From the NCBI GenBank assembly GCA_009784425.1, contig WRBR01000061.1, positions 1 to 11,050 on the forward strand: 11,050 bases of DNA. Direction: 5' to 3'. A model generated the notes under the pieces. That model saw only the letters and a list, made by a program, of their open reading frames with translations, had not been told where the DNA came from and made no database searches. The translations under genes and the position numbers were made by a program. Origin of the DNA: Coriobacteriia bacterium (GTDB taxonomy: Bacteria; Actinomycetota; Coriobacteriia; Coriobacteriales; UBA8131). Below, piece after piece: positions 1 to 6,394 of the stretch. How positions within the stretch are numbered: the first letter of the stretch is position 1; the number at the start of each line of letters is the position of its first letter.

Positions 1-1
1 C

Positions 2-241
2 GGCTATATGTTTTTAAAAGAGCACTGGGGCAAAGGTTTTGCGAATGAAGCAGTTACAGCAATGATTGAATATGCTCAAAATGTATTAAACCTAAAGCGC
101 TTGTATGCCGGTATTGAAGATAAAAATGAGATGTCAATAAAACTGATTGAAAAACTGGGCTTTGAATTGATAGCAGTTTTGCCTGAATCGAATTTTTACG
201 GCAGAATTGCAAACGTGGCATACTATTCACGCACATTATAA
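2..241 (+). CDS. GNAT family N-acetyltransferase, C-terminal fragment. The 5' end is cut by the window edge. It resembles the RimJ/RimL-type C-terminus with the motifs GKGFANEA and IEKLGFE.
   Basis: The ORF is open from the window start to TAA at 239-241. The GNAT C-terminal motifs (acetyl-CoA binding loop G-x-G-x-A, the KLGF acidic patch) were recognised by eye. The segment is visibly more AT-rich than the rest of the window. Confidence 0.6.
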   Translation, partial: GYMFLKEHWGKGFANEAVTAMIEYAQNVLNLKRLYAGIEDKNEMSIKLIEKLGFELIAVLPESNFYGRIANVAYYSRTL

Positions 242-523
242 GCAAACTGGCAGGCATACTATAAATTTGACGTACTTCGTAATATTGTGGATTAACTAAC
301 CAGTAGACCCACAGAAGTAAACAAACAGAATATTAAGCAGAGCCTCTGGCAATGCACTTGTACTCAAGCTCTGATTTTGACTTCTGCAATCCCTGTAACC
401 ATACTGTTTTCAAGAGCCGACTTTTCTACATAACGGACGAAGCCTGACAAGGGGACGCGGGAAACGGTCGAGGCCACTATGAGACTGAGGGCGATGGCCT
501 GTAAATGAAGGAGGCGTCACAAC

Positions 524-790
524 ATGAATCCGATAGCGCTTGGTTTATACCACCACTACAAGGGCAGGCAATACGAAGTGATTGGATTTGCCAAACACAG
601 CGAAACGCTTGAGGATATGGTGGTCTACAAGGCCCTCTACGGCGAGGGCGGCACGTGGGTTCGCCCGCTCTCTATGTGGGATAACCCCATTGAAGTTGAC
701 GGCAAAACCGTAGCTCGCTTTGAGTATGTTGGCGAAGCCAGCGGGCAACTCGAGTTGGCAGAAGGTGTCAAAGTTATACAGCCCCTTTGA
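524..790 (+). CDS. DUF1653 domain-containing protein (small conserved protein of unknown function)
   Basis: An 88-aa ORF with a strong RBS, GAAGGAGG, 8 nt upstream of the ATG. The sequence YHHYKGRQYEV...HSETLEDMVVYKALY...WVRP matches the DUF1653 signature as I recall it. Confidence 0.75.
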   Translation: MNPIALGLYHHYKGRQYEVIGFAKHSETLEDMVVYKALYGEGGTWVRPLSMWDNPIEVDGKTVARFEYVGEASGQLELAEGVKVIQPL

Positions 791-825
791 CACCTTTTGA
801 CACTGCTCTGGCAGGGTTCAAATGC

Positions 826-1581
826 CTACAACAGTTTGCGTCTATATACTCTCATAGCAATAAGCCATGCTACGGTCATAGTGCCAAGGCACCACGCAAA
901 GGTTATCCACAGGTCATTTCCAATCGACTCGCTATAAAATAGGGATCGGATTGCTTCAACCATAGGCGTCATGGGCTGGTTCTCGGCAAAGAACCTGAGT
1001 GCGCTTGGCATCGTTTCCGTTGGCGCAAAAGCTGAGCTGAGCATTGGGAGGAAGATCAGCGGAAACGCGAAGAAGAAGGCCCCGTCACTCGTTTTTGCTA
1101 CAAGTCCCGGGATGATCGCAACCCACGTTAGCGCAAAGGTGAGGGCGATAAGGATTCCCGCTATTACCAGCCATTCGTAGAACGTGGCTTCAGTTCTAAA
1201 CCCTATGATGTAAGCAACTGCAAAGACTGCCACCAGAGTGAATATGCTTGATACCACTGAAGAGAGAACTTGCGCCCAGAGAGCCGAAGAGCGGCTCATC
1301 GGCATGGAGTTGAATCGGCTGAAAATTCCCTTTTCTCTGTCGCCAAACATCCTCACCGCTGTATAAGCCGTATTGTAGGCAATCGTCATGAGGAGTATCC
1401 CAGGCAATTGAAACGTGACGTAATTCACCTCTAAGGGCAAGCTTGCTTTGATAGCACCACCGAATACATAGACGAAGAGCAGCATGAGGCATATTGGCTG
1501 AACCATTGCAGTTACGATGGTTTCTGGGCTCCGAATGATATGCTTCATCAAGCGCATGAAAAGGACTAATGTGTTCTTCAT
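826..1581 (-). CDS. ABC-2 family transporter permease (DrrB/NatB-like, about 6 TM helices)
   Basis: A 251-aa hydrophobic protein with multiple predicted TM segments. Its ATG overlaps the stop of the upstream ATPase gene (ATGA overlap at 1578-1581). This is the operon architecture typical of ABC-2 exporters. Confidence 0.85.
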   Translation of the reverse strand: MKNTLVLFMRLMKHIIRSPETIVTAMVQPICLMLLFVYVFGGAIKASLPLEVNYVTFQLPGILLMTIAYNTAYTAVRMFGDREKGIFSRFNSMPMSRSSALWAQVLSSVVSSIFTLVAVFAVAYIIGFRTEATFYEWLVIAGILIALTFALTWVAIIPGLVAKTSDGAFFFAFPLIFLPMLSSAFAPTETMPSALRFFAENQPMTPMVEAIRSLFYSESIGNDLWITFAWCLGTMTVAWLIAMRVYRRKLL

Positions 1582-2336
1582 TGCGATTTCCCCTGTTCTG
1601 ATCCAATGATTGCGAGAAAGATCTCTTCTAAGGTGGGCTGCTTTGCGATGTATTCCATCTTTTTGGGTGGAAACAGTTTTTTGAGCTCATCAAGTGTTCC
1701 TTTGGCAATGATCTTCCCGCCGTGTAGGATCGCGATTCTGCTTGCTAGCTGCTCTGCCTCTTCGAGGTATTGAGTGGTCAGGAGGATCGTCGTGCCACCC
1801 AGGCTCAGCTCGCTGACTTTTTTCCAAACCTCTATGCGCGCTTCGGGATCAAGCCCAGTTGTGGGCTCATCGAGGAAGATCACCTCAGGATCTCCTATGA
1901 GGCTCATGGCGATATCAAGCCTGCGTGTCATGCCACCGGAATAGACAGCCGCCCGCTTGTTTGCCAATTCGCTCAAGCCAAAACGCTCAAGCAGATCTTC
2001 TGCCACTGCGCCAGCATTTTTGACACCACGCAGTTTTGCAATGAGCATCAAGTTCTCGCGCCCCGTGAGAACACTGTCCACTGCAGCAAACTGCCCCGTC
2101 AAACTGATGGATTGTCGCACTTTTCCTGGTTGGCGCAACACGTCATAGTTGCAAATGCTTGCGCTTCCTCTATCAGGCTTCATGAGTGTAGCGAGGATAT
2201 TGACCATAGTTGTCTTGCCCGCTCCGTTTGATCCAAGCAGCGCAAAAATCTCCCCTCGCTGGATTTCCAGATCAACACCTTTCAAAACGTCATTGTCCTT
2301 AAACGACTTATACAGACCACTGATTTGAATAACCAT
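1578..2336 (-). CDS. ABC transporter ATP-binding protein (DrrA/NatA-like). Walker A is GSNGAGKT, the signature is YSGGMTRR and Walker B is IFLDEPT.
   Basis: Walker A, ABC signature, Walker B, Q-loop and H-loop are all visible in the translation. The preferred start is ATG at 2336 (rc), which gives MVIQISGLYKSF, the canonical ABC N-terminus, with AGGAG 8 nt upstream. The track ORF extends further to in-frame TTG at 2393 and ATG at 2387, which are less likely starts. Confidence 0.85.
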   Translation of the reverse strand: MVIQISGLYKSFKDNDVLKGVDLEIQRGEIFALLGSNGAGKTTMVNILATLMKPDRGSASICNYDVLRQPGKVRQSISLTGQFAAVDSVLTGRENLMLIAKLRGVKNAGAVAEDLLERFGLSELANKRAAVYSGGMTRRLDIAMSLIGDPEVIFLDEPTTGLDPEARIEVWKKVSELSLGGTTILLTTQYLEEAEQLASRIAILHGGKIIAKGTLDELKKLFPPKKMEYIAKQPTLEEIFLAIIGSEQGKSQ

Positions 2337-2647
2337 AACGCGCACTCCTGTTGTCCTTATGAGAGCGTCTCTGCTCTTCTGGTTCATCACCAAGCCAACT
2401 TATCTACCTTCACAACGGGCGTTTCTCTGAGAACAAAACGTACCGCTCTCTATCAGCTTACGGTTGCGGCCAGGCAGAATCGAGCTACTCTGGTTGGAGT
2501 TTGAAGAAACTTTTGGTTGCGGAAGGAGTTTTACCAGACGTACCAGTATGTTATGAGCAAATAATCTATAAATCCTTTCGCTATTCACACTCGAACCATG
2601 CTTTCACTTTCGCTATTAAATGATGGGCACAAAGATTTCAAGGGGGA

Positions 2648-2757
2648 GACAGGGGGACGGTTCTTCTGTCTCAGAGACAGAAGAACCGTCCCCCTGTCTC
2701 AGAGACAGAAGAACCGTCCCCCTGTCTCAGAGACAGAAGAACCGTCCCCCTGTCAGG
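2648..2757. repeat. Tandem palindromic repeat array. One left arm, GACAGGGGGACGGTTCTTCTGTCTC, is followed by three head-to-tail copies of the 28-nt unit AGAGACAGAAGAACCGTCCCCCTGTCTC. Every copy can pair with the left arm.
   Basis: Read directly from the sequence. The unit is the perfect reverse complement of the left arm around an A centre. The copies are contiguous with no spacers. Confidence 0.9.
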
Positions 2758-2817
2758 TTCTGTAGAGACCCTTTTCCTGAGCCTCAAGCCTCACTTACCC
2801 AGTTGCCGCCATGCTCT

Positions 2818-2955
2818 GACACAAATCCGAGAGTTCCTGCCGCGTTTGCACGCAAAAGTACGATTTTCAGCCTATTATTAGTGGAAAATGGGTGTTCAAA
2901 GGTCAAAAATCGTACTTTTGCGTGCAAACGCGGCAGGAACTCTCGGATTTGTGTC
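2818..2955. repeat. A 138-bp perfect hairpin. The 50-bp inverted repeats (GACACAAATCCGAGAGTTCCTGCCGCGTTTGCACGCAAAAGTACGATTTT and its exact reverse complement) are separated by a loop of about 38 bp. It looks like a MITE or a recombination site.
   Basis: Left arm 2818-2867 and right arm 2906-2955 are exact reverse complements (50/50) on direct reading. The loop 2868-2905 is AT-rich. Confidence 0.9.
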
Positions 2956-2966
2956 ACTGAGCGCTG

Positions 2967-2997
2967 CCACCACCTAATCGCCGGAAGCTTCTTGTGC
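2967..2997. terminator. GC-rich stem-loop (12-bp stem ATCGCCGGAAGC / GCTTCCGGCGAT, loop TTCTTGT) immediately 3' of the SPFH gene. It is a possible transcript-end structure with no clear U-tract.
   Basis: A perfect 12-bp inverted repeat lies about 15 bp beyond the stop codon of the minus-strand gene that ends at 3012. There is no T-run on either side, so intrinsic-terminator status is uncertain. Confidence 0.35.
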
Positions 2998-3011
2998 TTC
3001 CGGCGATGCGT

Positions 3012-4106
3012 CTACTTTGAGCTCATGATTTCTCTGAGCTCTCCCAGGAGGTTTCCGCCACTTACTGAGATGGTTCCCACCTTGTCGCAGATCCTTTCCA
3101 GGTATTCAAGTTCCTTGAGCTTGTACAGCGTGGTGTTCTCCTCCATGAGTCGTGCCGTGTTGAGCAGACTTCTGGTTGAGGCAACCTCTTCACGACGGGA
3201 GATGACATTGGCCTGAGCGTTCTTCTCGGCCACCAAAACGGTGTTCATGATGTCACGGATTTCTCCGGGCAAGATGATGTCCTTGAGGCCTGCGTCGGAA
3301 AACTCAACGAACAGGGCGTTTTGCTTTGCCTGGAGCTGCTTCAAGACAAAGGCCGCAATGGAATCCTTTTGCTCAAGCAACTCGTCAAAACGAAAGCGGC
3401 CGATATACTCGCGCAGCGCGAGCTGGGTTGTTGCGTAGACCTGGCTCTTGTAGTCATTGATCTCGCTGATGACCTTGAGTGCGTCAACCACCCGATAGGT
3501 GCAGACAAAGTTAATACGGAGAGAAACCTTGTCGGCAGTGAGAATCTCCTGCCCCGCGATGTCCAGTTGCTGAGCACGCAGGTCAACCCTGAGAACAGAG
3601 ATCTTCTGCAGGTTGAGCCAGAAGTTATAGACACCGCTCTTGAGCATGCGCACAAACTGTCCATCCACGTACAGCAAGCCTGCTTCGCCTTCTGCCACCT
3701 CGTAGCTGCGATACAGGTGGCGGGGTACTGCCATCAGCTGCTCGGCAGTTAGTCCGCCAAGCTCCGCTTCCGTGGTGTTGATGAGCTTGAAGCTCTGCTC
3801 ACGAAAGCAGTTCCAGTAGCAGTAGGTGCCAGGGTACAAGTCGTCGACGATACGACCGTCCTCAGTACGCAGGGCGATGTGGCCGTCAGGCACGTCAATG
3901 CGGGTGACGCTCCGCGCAAACGCCTCGTCTCGCAAAAGAACGGCGATGTCTACGTTGGGGAGCGCAACAGGATGTGCAACATTTACCTTTACGCAGCTCT
4001 CGCCAAACCTCGTTGCCACTCTGTGCTTGCCGGGCAAGAGCAGCTTACGATACGTTCCGTTCTTGAAGAGAAATCCTCTCTCGTTTTCATTGATTACTGT
4101 TTTCAT
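3012..4106 (-). CDS. SPFH/band-7 (stomatin/prohibitin/flotillin/HflKC) domain protein. It is atypical: there is no N-terminal membrane helix, and the N-terminal beta-segment of the SPFH fold appears duplicated.
   Basis: The C-terminal 200 aa (KVSLRINFVCTYRVVDALKVISEI ... VLVAEKNAQANVISRREEVASTRSLLNTARL ... coiled-coil) match the SPFH core. The N-terminus, MKTVINENERGFLFKNGTYRKLLLPGKHRV, resembles the usual SPFH start, and a second copy of the same motif, GLLYVDGQFVRMLKSGVYNFW...VDLRAQQLDIAGQEILTADKV, follows about 150 aa later. The start was chosen at ATG 4106 (rc) because AGAGG sits 5 nt upstream. The track ORF extends to 4322 with no RBS, and its extra 72 aa have no SPFH counterpart. Confidence 0.75.
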   Translation of the reverse strand: MKTVINENERGFLFKNGTYRKLLLPGKHRVATRFGESCVKVNVAHPVALPNVDIAVLLRDEAFARSVTRIDVPDGHIALRTEDGRIVDDLYPGTYCYWNCFREQSFKLINTTEAELGGLTAEQLMAVPRHLYRSYEVAEGEAGLLYVDGQFVRMLKSGVYNFWLNLQKISVLRVDLRAQQLDIAGQEILTADKVSLRINFVCTYRVVDALKVISEINDYKSQVYATTQLALREYIGRFRFDELLEQKDSIAAFVLKQLQAKQNALFVEFSDAGLKDIILPGEIRDIMNTVLVAEKNAQANVISRREEVASTRSLLNTARLMEENTTLYKLKELEYLERICDKVGTISVSGGNLLGELREIMSSK

Positions 4107-4483
4107 TTTTACCTCTATTCTCTCGTTTTTGCCCCTGAACTCCCTGTAAGAGAGAGGGGCAGGTGTTTGATATTGCTTGTTGGTTTCCACCAAAAATGTC
4201 CACGTCTGTTTTGCGGGACCAAGGTTGAGCTCAACAAAAACTCCTCGGTGTGTGTTTCCCAAGTTGTGCAGAAACACTGTGGAAGAGGTCTGGTTAAGCG
4301 GTATCCCCTTTGTCGCAGGCAAACCATACGCTGCAAAGCGTTGCTTATTGGTTGGGCGTGTGCCTAAGCCTCAAAGCAACAGCTGTGCGGGACATTTTCA
4401 GTTTCGACCGTGTGGTGATAAGGCTTTGCTGGCCTTTTCAGGAGGGATACCGCAACAGTTATGTACTGCTGGCATCACGACAT

Positions 4484-4530
4484 ACTCTACCATTGAGCTA
4501 ACCCATGACGGGTGAAGGATTCGAACCTTC
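4484..4530 (-). other. tRNA-like fragments. A perfect T-arm (GAAGG-TTCGAAT-CCTTC) plus a 7-nt acceptor-like strand is followed immediately by a D-arm-like motif, TAGCTCAATGGTAGAG. This order cannot make a tRNA, so it is either a fossil att site or part of an ncRNA.
   Basis: The plus strand reads ...CTCTACCATTGAGCTAACCCATGACGGGTGAAGGATTCGAACCTTC... The reverse complement gives GGTTCGAATCC, the canonical T-loop, and GCTCAATGGTAGAG, the canonical D-arm. No complementary 5' acceptor strand (GACGGGT) exists nearby. No tmRNA tag reading frame was found either. Confidence 0.35.
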
Positions 4531-5158
4531 AACTGTGTCGAAAGGTCTGTTTTTCAGACAGAGTGACGGGCAGACATCCCGGCATACCGCAGGATAGAAT
4601 CCTCGGCACCGCAAGGGCCTCCTAACCCTTTGCATAGGGAAGTAAACCTAAAGTGAAGGGTACTACTCATAAGTTGTTTACCGGATTTGTGGTTGGTGCC
4701 GGCGAGCTGAGCAGTTTGAGCTGCTCTGCCGGTTGTCCAAACAGGTTTTGCGAAGCGTCGATACCAGTGTATCGGCACGCTTTAAAAAGGAACGACTCGT
4801 CATATGCTTATGACCGCCGTGTGAAGATGCTGTTGTCAAGGTTCAGTGGTTCTCGTTCGTTTCTACCAACAGGGGCTTTGGCCGTATATGCTCCAAACAC
4901 CAACCGGAGCCTTGTTGCCTAGAGCCGCTGCTGTTGTCTTCAGTACTTTGAAAACAATTCATGCTCTCACCTTTCTTTTTACTGATGCTCGTACTTGAGC
5001 CTGACCAAGATTAACCGGTCTTGAAACAATAATCATTTAAAAAAGTTTGCGAAGTCATATCTTGTGCGTTTTATCCAAGTCTTGGAAAATGGTTTTAGTT
5101 TCACTCCTTACCGGAGGCACGCGGCGGGCACAGTTGTTTGGAGGGCAGCAACAACGGC

Positions 5159-6394
5159 ATGGCGGATTTCTCAGAGCTGGTAAAAAGGTTTGATAAGATT
5201 AGAGACTATATGCATGACTTTTATGTGTATGGTTTTAAGTCACGCTTGGACTTTACCAAGAAGTCGCCGCGCACTTATGACAACGAGCGCCGCCGCATAG
5301 AGAGCTATCTGAGCGGTCACATGCAGTGGGATTACAGAAATGGCGCCAAGATATCCTTTGTTTCTCTAGACTGCGCTCAGGTTTTGAACAATCCCCTCTA
5401 TGCTGCGTGGAAGTCAAAAAGCTTTACTGCAAACGACATAATGCTGCACTTTTTCCTTTTGGATTCACTTTGCGAGAGCCCCTTGACCATAGAGGAGCTC
5501 ACGCAAGAAGTCTGCACAAGGTGCGAGCTTGTTCTCGACTCCCAAACCATCAGAAATAAATGTGATGAGTATGTGAGGCTGGGCATGCTGGAAAAGAAAA
5601 AGCAGGGCAGGGCCTACGTGTACCGTATCTCTACTGAGCCGGCCTTGTTGCCGCAAGAGCTTATAAACGCGGTGAGTTTTTTCCAGGGCGCAGCTCCTTT
5701 TGGTGAGATTGGCAGTTTTATCCTCGATAACGAAAAAGCAGCCAATACTGTTTTCTCCTTTAAGCACTACTACCTGGCGCACACGCTTGAAGACGGCATC
5801 TTGCTGGAGCTCCTCACGGCCATACGGCAGAGTCGATCGGTGACCTTCAAAAACCAGAGCAGCAAGTCGGAGCAGATATTTGCCTTTGAGGCAATTCCCT
5901 TGAAGATATTCGTCAGCGCTACCACCGGAAGGCGCTATGCCTGTATGTACTCGCCAACGAGCAGGCGTTTTTTCAACTATCGCCTCGATGCCATCAAGGC
6001 GGTAACCCTGGGCGAGGCTGCAGACTGCGCACCTCAACTGAGAGAGCAGCTGGATAAGAACCTCGATATGGTGTGGGGCGTGAGCTTTGGCGGCAAGGCG
6101 CGCTCTGACATCATTCGCATGACGCTGTATATCAATGAGAAGAGCGAGCACTATATCATCGACCGCATAGCGCGTGAAGGGCAGGGGGGCAGTCTTACTC
6201 GCCTGAAGAAAAACACCTTTCTCTTTACCAAGGAGGTCTTTGACAGCAACGACATGTCTCCCTGGATTAAGACGTTCACCGGCCGCATCATCGCACTTGA
6301 GGGGTCCAACCAGGCAGTAGTCAACCGCTTCTATCGTGACATCTCGGCTCTGGCACAGCTCTATGGCATTCAAGCCGGGGAGGCTGATTCTTAA
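5159..6394 (+). CDS. WYL-domain transcriptional regulator with wHTH-WYL-WCX architecture (PafB/BrxR/CapW-like), carrying an extra N-terminal domain of about 110 aa
   Basis: The wHTH is about TIEELTQEVCTRCELVLDSQTIRNKCDEYVRLGMLEKK. The WYL motif is RYACMYSPTSRRFFNYRLDAIKAVTL. The C-terminal WCX-like segment is YIIDRIAREGQGGSL. The start is ambiguous: ATG 5159 has GGAGGG 14 nt upstream, while the track start TTG 5138 has no RBS. The stop TAA overlaps the next ATG (TAATG). Confidence 0.75.
   Translation: MADFSELVKRFDKIRDYMHDFYVYGFKSRLDFTKKSPRTYDNERRRIESYLSGHMQWDYRNGAKISFVSLDCAQVLNNPLYAAWKSKSFTANDIMLHFFLLDSLCESPLTIEELTQEVCTRCELVLDSQTIRNKCDEYVRLGMLEKKKQGRAYVYRISTEPALLPQELINAVSFFQGAAPFGEIGSFILDNEKAANTVFSFKHYYLAHTLEDGILLELLTAIRQSRSVTFKNQSSKSEQIFAFEAIPLKIFVSATTGRRYACMYSPTSRRFFNYRLDAIKAVTLGEAADCAPQLREQLDKNLDMVWGVSFGGKARSDIIRMTLYINEKSEHYIIDRIAREGQGGSLTRLKKNTFLFTKEVFDSNDMSPWIKTFTGRIIALEGSNQAVVNRFYRDISALAQLYGIQAGEADS

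Follow-up and report, generated by a model that had tools for sequence, protein, structure and literature searches.

The genome of a Coriobacteriia bacterium carries a long, perfect inverted repeat. The repeat lies in an 11,050-nt stretch of DNA (assembly GCA_009784425.1, contig WRBR01000061.1, positions 1 to 11,050 of the forward strand; the whole of this stretch is called the window). An initial annotation had placed here a 138-bp hairpin with 50/50 perfect arms at positions 2818-2955, and had named as candidates a miniature inverted-repeat transposable element (MITE), a site-specific recombination or resolution site, and a regulatory element. The interpretation that we favour, with somewhat more confidence than doubt, is that the hairpin in the window is a solo copy, without a gene, from a dispersed family of 140-bp palindromes whose reference member is the promoter/operator palindrome of a single-copy, vertically inherited nuclease-like gene.

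A repeat search confirmed the hairpin and lengthened each arm by one base, giving arms at 2817-2867 and 2906-2956 (51/51 nt, 100% complementary), a 38-nt spacer, and a total of 140 nt. Its placement between a palindrome array (2645-2756) and an SPFH gene (stop at 3012, minus strand) was also borne out. The loop does have the 38 nt originally given; with 39% G+C, it is just moderately AT-rich. The left arm consists of an outer segment at 2817-2833 (TGACACAAATCCGAGAG), of which the family conserves little beyond TGNCNCA, and a conserved 34-nt core at 2834-2867 (TTCCTGCCGCGTTTGCACGCAAAAGTACGATTTT), the split between the two being taken from the family alignment. The spacer occupies 2868-2905; its length is fixed throughout the family, and its sequence is variable with phased A/T tracts. 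The right arm (2906-2956) is the exact reverse complement of the left, with its core at 2906-2939 and its outer segment at 2940-2956. Folded as single-stranded DNA, positions 2800-2975 reached -73.4 kcal/mol, compared with -22.3 ± 2.9 kcal/mol for 200 dinucleotide shuffles (z = -17.7), none of which equalled it. In the minimum-free-energy fold, pairing extends at most over 2813-2962, where GCTC at 2813-2816 pairs with GAGC at 2959-2962 (4 extra pairs) past a 2-nt bulge, CT, at 2957-2958. The same 140 nt were found, identical, in two independent assemblies, ENA ERZ27257297 (L001; the loci compared here bear L numbers) and JGI 3300010369 (L002), which excludes an assembly artefact. The JGI data set is cited as a higher-termite gut metagenome (PMC7800795).

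Several ready explanations for such a hairpin did not fit. The 51-bp stem is not followed by a T-run on either strand, and a terminator scan gave no site at 2817-2956. Rfam 15 gave no match at the gathering threshold over the element; the sub-threshold matches to mir-548 (43 bits; threshold 90) and SSRC8_2 (24 bits; threshold 72) are typical of any long hairpin. Integron attC features were likewise absent: the arm ends have no GTTRRRY boxes, there is no cassette array, and the sole integrase of the window is phage-type and lies 5.4 kb away beside a tRNA fragment.

We found that the window copy belongs to a dispersed family. An exact 22-mer from the middle of the arm recruited 22 termite-gut metagenome contigs, which flank comparison with the window resolved into 18 distinct loci; the further copies that the initial annotation had proposed to look for therefore exist, and the element is not single-copy. 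All copies are intergenic, and their flanks and neighbours are unrelated, including genes for haem synthesis, guaA, recO, pcm, ETF, and transporters. Placement varied, with some copies 15-54 nt past stop codons, others abutting start codons, and some between convergent genes or far from starts. Orientation relative to the flanking genes, as read from loop orientations and gene strands, was mixed. Length was nearly constant: 140 nt with a 38-nt loop in 21 of the 22 complete copies, and likewise in the divergent copy L042. Plasmid and phage collections gave no match by megablast of the whole window or by distant blastn of the hairpin. Exact scans of IMG/VR with three arm patterns returned nothing except a single arm-like 32-nt stretch in the high-G+C contig L030, probably by chance, and a 20-mer scan of GTDB representative genomes returned one chance match in Nocardia, so that the host is not one of these species representatives. 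Homologues of the SPFH protein would point to a Clostridia-like host. In two related contigs with a G+C content of 0.59 (L006:1943-2082 and L007:4069-4208), the element is situated inside a haem-biosynthesis cluster, 9 nt upstream of the cobA-hemD start codon, and in L007 the upstream hemA-hemC ORF ends within the outer arm of the element. From this placement, the element contributes to coding or translation-initiation regions in these two contigs.

One group of copies is tied to a gene. In L015/L023, L018, L024, L041, and L042, the element runs right up to the ATG of an open reading frame (ORF) of ~322 aa. Four of these loci (L015, L024, L041, and L042) represent the same chromosomal locus, directly downstream of guaA, and the identity of GuaA to the reference was 73% for L024 and 53% for L042. 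The L042 element shows 61% sequence identity and still has 140 nt and a 38-nt loop, both arms having changed in parallel. The proximal outer arm of the gene-linked copies contains TACAAT or TATACT exactly 6 nt before the ATG. An arrangement of a -10-like hexamer (TAATAT, TATACT, TACACT, or TATTGT), 6 nt, and ATG recurs in paralogues of the gene, so that it was seen at 8 of 10 loci overall. A hexamer at this distance predicts a leaderless mRNA, with the whole palindrome lying upstream of the transcript.

The encoded protein family has the invariant residues E186, D231, W234, E242, Y243, S245, H249, and D258 in the pattern SASPxE...CDLFWP...VEYDSxxH...DxxRR. Among 30 members, weak matches were obtained to MTES_1575 (19/30) and DUF559 (11/30), and the AlphaFold2 model had a pLDDT of 90.4. 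The C-terminal domain is a Vsr/DUF559-like nuclease domain of the PD-(D/E)xK type. The N-terminal part has weak fold similarity to the DNA-binding antitoxin AbiEi, although Pfam and NCBIfam did not detect the AbiEi sequence family. AbiEi and Rv2827c, which bind DNA, recognise inverted repeats in the promoters of their own genes and thereby autoregulate (PMC7319586). The family is large, with 2,838 clusters at 50% identity (E <= 1e-30, full-length matches), and its named relatives come from metagenome-assembled genomes of Coriobacteriales and Clostridiales. No full-length family corresponding to it is present in Pfam, NCBIfam, or PADLOC; the matches in Pfam and NCBIfam were only weak and partial and concerned the C-terminal domain, and the family is not a PADLOC defence component. 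No relatives were found in IMG/VR (2.9 million viral contigs), and a full-text literature search on DUF559 returned nothing linking such proteins to palindromic repeats.

The association of gene and palindrome extends to the paralogues. At seven further loci, encoding proteins of 36-58% identity, six had a long inverted repeat just upstream of the gene, with arms of 24-52 nt and spacers of 26-147 nt. Only one other genuine long inverted repeat was found in those ~40 kb, a solo hairpin of related type at L038:1535-1682. The arms at L031 are homologous to the 140-nt family (nhmmer, 2e-9), and the remaining paralogue repeats share only the motifs T[GA]NCAC[AT]AA, TTGC[CG]G, and ACGATTTT. The solo hairpin in L038 is of another sub-type (TGCCACAAAATTGCGG...GTACGATTTT), with 34-nt arms and an 80-nt spacer, and is located ~700 nt upstream of the hairpin linked to a 39%-identical paralogue; the arms of the solo hairpin are closer to the upstream repeat of the paralogue in L036 than to the neighbouring hairpin. 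Tandem arrays of ~22-nt units were also observed next to nuclease-like genes, directly downstream in L015 (10165-10390) and upstream in L040 (2296-2450).

Alignment of 20 family members defined the conserved unit as an inverted pair of 34-nt cores (TTCCTGCCGCGTTTGCACGCAAAAAGACGATTTT) adjoining the loop. Each core is a conserved box that is not itself a palindrome of the 20-40-nt type known from repetitive extragenic palindromic (REP) sequences, and contains only a 5-2-5 mini-palindrome, TTTGC-NN-GCAAA. In the window this is TTTGC-AC-GCAAA at 2845-2856 in the left core, in alignment columns that are invariant or nearly so, and its mirror TTTGC-GT-GCAAA at 2917-2928 in the right core, 72 bp away from centre to centre (~7 helical turns). 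The boxes also lack an unpaired tag (GTAG or CGTC) in the sense of PMC3733652. The outer 17 nt have only TG.CAC.A in common; they fall into several sequence types and are usually unlike at the two ends of a copy (7-13 of 17 positions complementary). Only five of the 22 copies reach 50-51 paired positions (the window copy, L008, L010, L012, and L025), and in L012 and L025 the palindrome continues for another 34-36 nt into flanking REP-like units. Judged from this alignment, the 51/51 perfection of the window copy is a derived, symmetrised state of one copy and not the norm of the family. The earlier view that such perfection implies either very recent origin or selection is refined accordingly: family-wide conservation is confined to the inner 34 nt of each arm, and the outer 17 nt, mostly unpaired elsewhere, would owe their pairing here to symmetrisation. 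Three other identities were tried for these sequences and rejected: a sigma-54 promoter (TGGCAC occurs in some copies, with no TTGC at the required 5-nt spacing), Tn3-family ends (GGGGTC...ACGC; GGGG is found in one sub-family only), and an IHF or Noc site in the loop, the consensus of which was not fitted.

The two arms vary together. The core sub-variants AAAAGTAC, AAAAAGAC, AAAAGAAC, and AAATGGAC are nearly always the same on both arms of a copy. At pair 42/99, 10 copies have AU, another 10 have GC, and no copy is unpaired; 85% of arm cells are paired, compared with 36-45% when partners are slid. Such covariation reflects either selection for symmetry or pairing, or conversion from arm to arm and from copy to copy. 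The loop of L024 matches that of the unlinked copy L017 at 35 of 38 positions, compared with 10-18 of 38 for its own orthologues, which supports conversion between copies. Over the central 106 bp, AA/TT dinucleotides recur with a period of 10.25 bp (power 3.7, compared with 0.28 for the null). The signal is also present in the divergent loops alone, with z = 18.6, z values being inflated here by shared ancestry, and in the window copy alone (power 4.0, against a 99th percentile of 0.90 in shuffles). A period of 10.25 bp corresponds to the helical repeat of duplex DNA and suggests a constraint on the double-stranded form.

Solo copies appear to keep traces of a gene-linked origin. Beside the copy in L017 stands ATGGATACTGTAAT, compared with ATGGAGACTGTAAT in the gene (first 13-14 nt), and traces of 7-8 nt are found in L020 and L005. 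For the window copy, a 99%-identical gene together with its hairpin (L041) is present on k141_307977 of ERZ27257297, the same assembly as the source contig of the window. The G+C content is 0.50 for both the window and the gene contig, and the tetranucleotide correlations with the window (0.885 for L041 and 0.891 for L015) are the highest of all loci compared. The cores of the window copy match those of the gene-linked copy of the same assembly at 32/34 and 30/34 positions, versus 24-28/34 for the L042 orthologue. These results suggest that the window copy and the nuclease-like gene likely reside in one genome.

According to the interpretation favoured here, the element would work as duplex DNA, as a curved, two-fold symmetric binding module in which a dimer or tetramer formed by the cognate protein would occupy the two core boxes, 72 bp apart. 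At the gene-linked copy, the bound protein would autoregulate the leaderless promoter. Solo copies, including that of the window, would have arisen from the gene-linked copy, and what spread or homogenised them would have been recombination or gene conversion, perhaps set off by the nuclease, instead of cut-and-paste transposition. The perfect 51-nt arms of the window copy would then be a product of arm-to-arm homogenisation.

The MITE proposed initially would be an internally deleted insertion sequence (IS) whose TG...CA ends are recognised in trans by a DDE transposase, the link to the nuclease-like gene being a secondary promoter capture. The element has the expected size and distribution, since it is 140 nt long, non-coding, and intergenic, with copies at 18 loci amid unrelated flanks and neighbouring genes. 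The copies have TG.CAC. termini and the inner 34 nt in common, as in the bipartite ends of ISs, which combine terminal bases with a conserved subterminal block. Synteny between L004 and L014 breaks exactly at the element edge, and L005 has an 8-bp direct repeat, CTCACCGT, near the element ends. However, the flanking short direct repeats that the initial annotation had proposed to check for did not exceed background: the longest repeats in the flanks were distributed as in mismatched controls, and no 2-9 bp duplication was present at any fixed pair of boundary offsets among 19 copies. Of 22 copies, only 5 have outer 17-nt segments that pair with each other, and the apparent boundaries run further out in sub-families. 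No autonomous IS with these ends was found in ~130 kb of family contigs, in plasmids, in phages, or in GTDB representatives. Arm spacing was 38-70 nt in every locus examined, never reaching coding length in any of the 22 contigs, and since no locus has arms more than 70 nt apart, no autonomous element was seen. Also against a MITE are the strict maintenance of length even at 61% sequence identity, the retention of the module at one locus across a GuaA divergence of 53-73% identity, and the different inverted repeats that paralogues carry at the same position, which independent captures would not explain. We regard a conventional MITE as unlikely; what holds of that proposal is that the element is multi-copy and non-coding.

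A second possibility is a structured RNA, that is, a hairpin in the 3' untranslated region (UTR) of the SPFH mRNA or in the 5' UTR of an ABC operon, acting as a stabiliser, RNase III site, or terminator, as proposed for REP, ERIC, and Correia sequences. Read along the minus strand, the SPFH/slipin gene (ending at 3012) comes first and is followed by a small hairpin (2977-3007), the palindrome of 140 nt, the array of 28-nt units (2645-2756), a spacer of ~250 nt, and an ABC transporter operon. With both neighbouring genes on the same strand, read-through would transcribe the element. The extremely stable fold, the compensatory changes in the inner stem, and the many copies located 15-54 nt past stop codons also agree with an RNA. 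On the other hand, orientation relative to flanking genes is mixed, the predicted leaderless transcription start lies downstream of the gene-linked copies, the stem is not followed by a U-tract, and the Rfam matches are spurious, sub-threshold microRNA hits. The A/T phasing runs through the loop, which is sensible for duplex DNA and not for an RNA loop. Furthermore, SPFH has its own terminator-like structure, the small G+C-rich hairpin at 2977-3007 (minus strand; 12-bp stem, 7-nt loop), which stands directly 3' of the SPFH stop and is separate from the repeat. An 87%-identical SPFH orthologue (L027) keeps this small hairpin and lacks the 140-nt element, indicating that SPFH does not need the element. 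The region downstream of the gene in L027 is not collinear with the window, and no clean pair of filled and empty sites was obtained from this closest SPFH orthologue. A structured RNA is in our view improbable.

Much the same low probability applies to the solo copies being working operators, binding sites in a regulon of a winged helix-turn-helix (HTH) nuclease protein, with the window copy controlling the ABC operon or SPFH. The cores are the same as in the gene-linked promoter palindrome, and some solo copies abut start codons, such as those upstream of cobA-hemD in L006 and L007. Yet positions relative to genes are heterogeneous (past stops, between convergent genes, far from starts), the neighbouring genes are functionally unrelated, and 140-bp units that keep remnants of another gene's first codons would be atypical for operators. 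The window copy itself stands 50 nt past the end of SPFH, and the ABC ATPase ORF begins 419 nt downstream of the copy. The idea of a regulatory element is therefore apt for the gene-linked members, which occupy the promoter region of the nuclease-like gene, whereas nothing indicates that the window copy regulates its own neighbours. At its present site, the window copy probably has no dedicated role for these neighbours, and at most it could add a long RNase III-type RNA hairpin to read-through transcripts.

The remaining candidate, a site for recombination, inversion, or resolution by the tyrosine integrase of the window or another recombinase, is very improbable. Long inverted repeats and the presence of a tyrosine integrase gene (8589-9860) are in keeping with it, and the L024 loop may be inverted relative to its orthologues (18/38 matches to L015 when inverted, versus 13/38), a comparison that is ambiguous as the loop centre is itself quasi-palindromic. 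However, the integrase stands beside a 3' fragment of tRNA-Met in an island that starts ~5.4 kb away, near 8340, and no recombinase adjoins the element in the other 17 loci examined. Loop orientation is the same in all three assemblies of the window locus. A 38-bp spacer is also too short for inversion of a duplex by looping. This candidate of the initial annotation accordingly found no support. The putative tRNA-Met 3' half, on the minus strand at ~8340-8392 (anticodon loop CTCATAA, T-loop GGTTCAAATCC, CCA end), was not called by ARAGORN. It is followed by the integrase, an HTH_17 protein, and a PIN-domain gene (to 10385), and the region looks like the attachment end of a separate integrated island.

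Dispersed palindromes with a dedicated partner have a precedent in the REPIN-RAYT system, in which doublets of REP sequences form hairpins and a single-copy REP-associated tyrosine transposase (RAYT) is present (Bertels & Rainey, PMC3116915, PMC3337134; bioRxiv 10.1101/2021.07.10.451892). The present family resembles it in being dispersed, non-coding, and intergenic, with hairpins of fixed length, no target-site duplications, and halves that evolve in concert. One cognate gene is tied to a repeat copy, apparently inherited vertically at a fixed locus, and solo copies best match the gene-linked copy of the same genome. Unlike RAYTs, the linked protein has a Vsr/DUF559-type PD-(D/E)xK nuclease domain and not an HUH/Y1 transposase domain (PF01797), and no RAYT was found among the neighbouring genes scanned around the copies. 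Whereas REPs flank the RAYT gene on both sides, the repeat here stands upstream only and holds the promoter of the gene. Single-stranded hairpins are the substrate of RAYTs, whereas the helical phasing observed here suggests recognition of a duplex. The conserved block also differs, being the inner 34 nt beside the loop and not a short palindrome of 20-40 nt tagged with GTAG or CGTC (PMC3733652).

Other known repeats share part of this architecture. The Correia elements of Neisseria, ERIC/IRU of enterobacteria, RUP and BOX of pneumococcus, and bcr1 of the Bacillus cereus group are 100-160-bp, non-coding, multi-copy, intergenic, and largely self-complementary sequences, often at gene ends, and Correia elements carry promoter elements and a central bend (IHF) site. 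The 140-bp family resembles all of these in size, lack of coding, copy number, intergenic location, and self-complementarity, and departs from them in having no TA or other duplication and no IS with matching ends, and in the persistence of one member at an orthologous locus across deep divergence with its length exact. E. coli BIME/RIP elements consist of inverted REPs that flank an IHF site, bind gyrase and IHF, stand at 3' ends of transcription units, and are bound as duplex by architectural proteins. They share with the present family two inverted conserved boxes at a fixed distance around a bendable centre, but the sequences are unrelated, the loop has no IHF consensus on a reading of its sequence, and a gene-linked cognate member exists here.

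Systems resembling the protein also differ from the one described. Compared with the operators of AbiEi and Rv2827c, which belong to type IV toxin-antitoxin systems and whose repeats span ~23 bp (PMC7319586, PMC3985639), the arms found here are 34-52 nt long and 26-147 bp apart; the partner nuclease domain is fused in the same polypeptide instead of being a separate DUF1814 toxin, and the operator-like palindrome has spread as solo copies. The homing endonuclease I-Bth0305I (PDB 3r3p) is Vsr-like (EDxHD), but there is no intron or intein context in the present case, the gene is stationary at guaA, and the palindrome, not the gene, appears to spread. The element is best described as a REP/REPIN-like dispersed palindrome with an unexpected association to a nuclease gene, and the position of its gene-linked copy on the promoter hints at a type of repeat-enzyme partnership that has no earlier description.

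Several points weigh against the interpretation that the window hairpin is a solo relative of a promoter palindrome bound by the nuclease-like protein. Binding or cutting of the element by the protein, like the mechanism of dispersal, is something we infer from the sequences, and duplication-free dispersal by a PD-(D/E)xK nuclease is hypothetical. The hairpin is on one side of the gene only, whereas REPs surround RAYT genes and inverted repeats bound an IS, and there is no inverted repeat upstream of the paralogue in L040. The TACAAT box seen in gene-linked copies is missing from the window copy, whose co-residence with the gene is argued from a shared assembly and similar composition, not from a closed genome. 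Arm covariation would also be expected of a selected RNA or single-stranded DNA hairpin, and recruitment by an exact 22-mer partly accounts for the conservation of the cores among the recovered copies.

More tentatively, and with less confidence than in the interpretation just weighed, we propose a second, independent partnership of the REPIN-RAYT kind. Each ~320-aa paralogue would own a cognate promoter palindrome that it binds as a curved duplex. Its nuclease activity would set off break-induced gene conversion, by which solo copies would spread and become homogenised without duplications, REP doublets, which offer homology, being one example of a target. The hairpin in the window would descend from such a process.

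The element has REP-like neighbours of its own. The array at 2645-2756 consists of 28-nt palindromic units (GAGACAG-GGGGACGGTTCTT-CTGTCTC), one inverted and three direct, and belongs to a distinct repeat family often found near 140-nt elements. Four units are present in the window, whereas the ENA and JGI contigs (L001 and L002), 100% identical to it elsewhere, have only the doublet of two units, and this 56-nt difference reflects either copy-number variation or assembly collapse. The GGGACGG motif of the REP-like units occurs at 3.8 per kb within 100 nt of 140-nt elements versus 0.51 per kb elsewhere, and both families are intergenic; this 7-fold enrichment is about what is expected for two intergenic families, and we do not count it as a specific association except in the REP-flanked sub-family L010, L012, and L025. 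The second repeat family is made up of short hairpins whose 6-7-bp stems vary and whose loop or stem holds a conserved GGGGACGG(GG) motif, and its arrays were observed in most contigs of these organisms (L007, L008, L012, L013, L018, and others; window 2645-2756 and 8233-8285). L018:1-115 is a perfect palindrome of REP-like units, with 55-nt arms and a 13-nt centre, and resembles an "empty" version of the REP-flanked 140-nt copies L010, L012, and L025.

To the right in the window are two tandem genes for WYL-domain proteins (418 and 352 aa; 5138-7452), followed by a Gp49/HigB-like toxin and an HTH (HigA-like) antitoxin (7598-8213). The WYL pair, the HigB/HigA-like pair, and SPFH form a block bounded by two REP-like doublets, the second of which (8233-8285) is followed by a terminator-like hairpin and then by the tRNA-Met fragment. 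ARAGORN called a 97-nt tRNA-Pro(cgg) at 7008-7104, inside a Gly/Ala/Glu low-complexity stretch of the second WYL-domain ORF (6394-7452); this call is probably a false positive. Sub-threshold matches to YrlA (Y RNA-like; 29-33 bits against a gathering threshold of 69) were observed in the window (4480-4538, minus strand) and in L027:113-174, L028:5580-5689, and L029:239-348. At all four related loci, the match lies ~300-400 nt upstream of the SPFH/slipin gene on the same strand. The cluster order in L028 is WYL-WYL-x-RtcB-x-[YrlA-like]-SPFH, and the window has no RtcB. These observations suggest a conserved RNA-repair-type module with a non-coding RNA below the Rfam threshold.

Dispersed palindromic repeats are common in bacteria. 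To our knowledge, a dedicated, vertically inherited enzyme partner for them is known only for REP/REPINs, in the form of RAYT. Should only the minimal reading hold, the window would contain one ordinary copy from a new repeat family, without a special role where it stands. The family offers a concrete, testable candidate for a non-RAYT partner, namely a nuclease-like family with long promoter palindromes, one of which has been multiplied around the genome in at least one lineage at exactly 140 bp. If the partnership is real, it would assign a function to a large uncharacterised protein family, would reveal a duplication-free route of repeat spread, and would account for part of the very long, perfect palindromes at which metagenome assemblies break.

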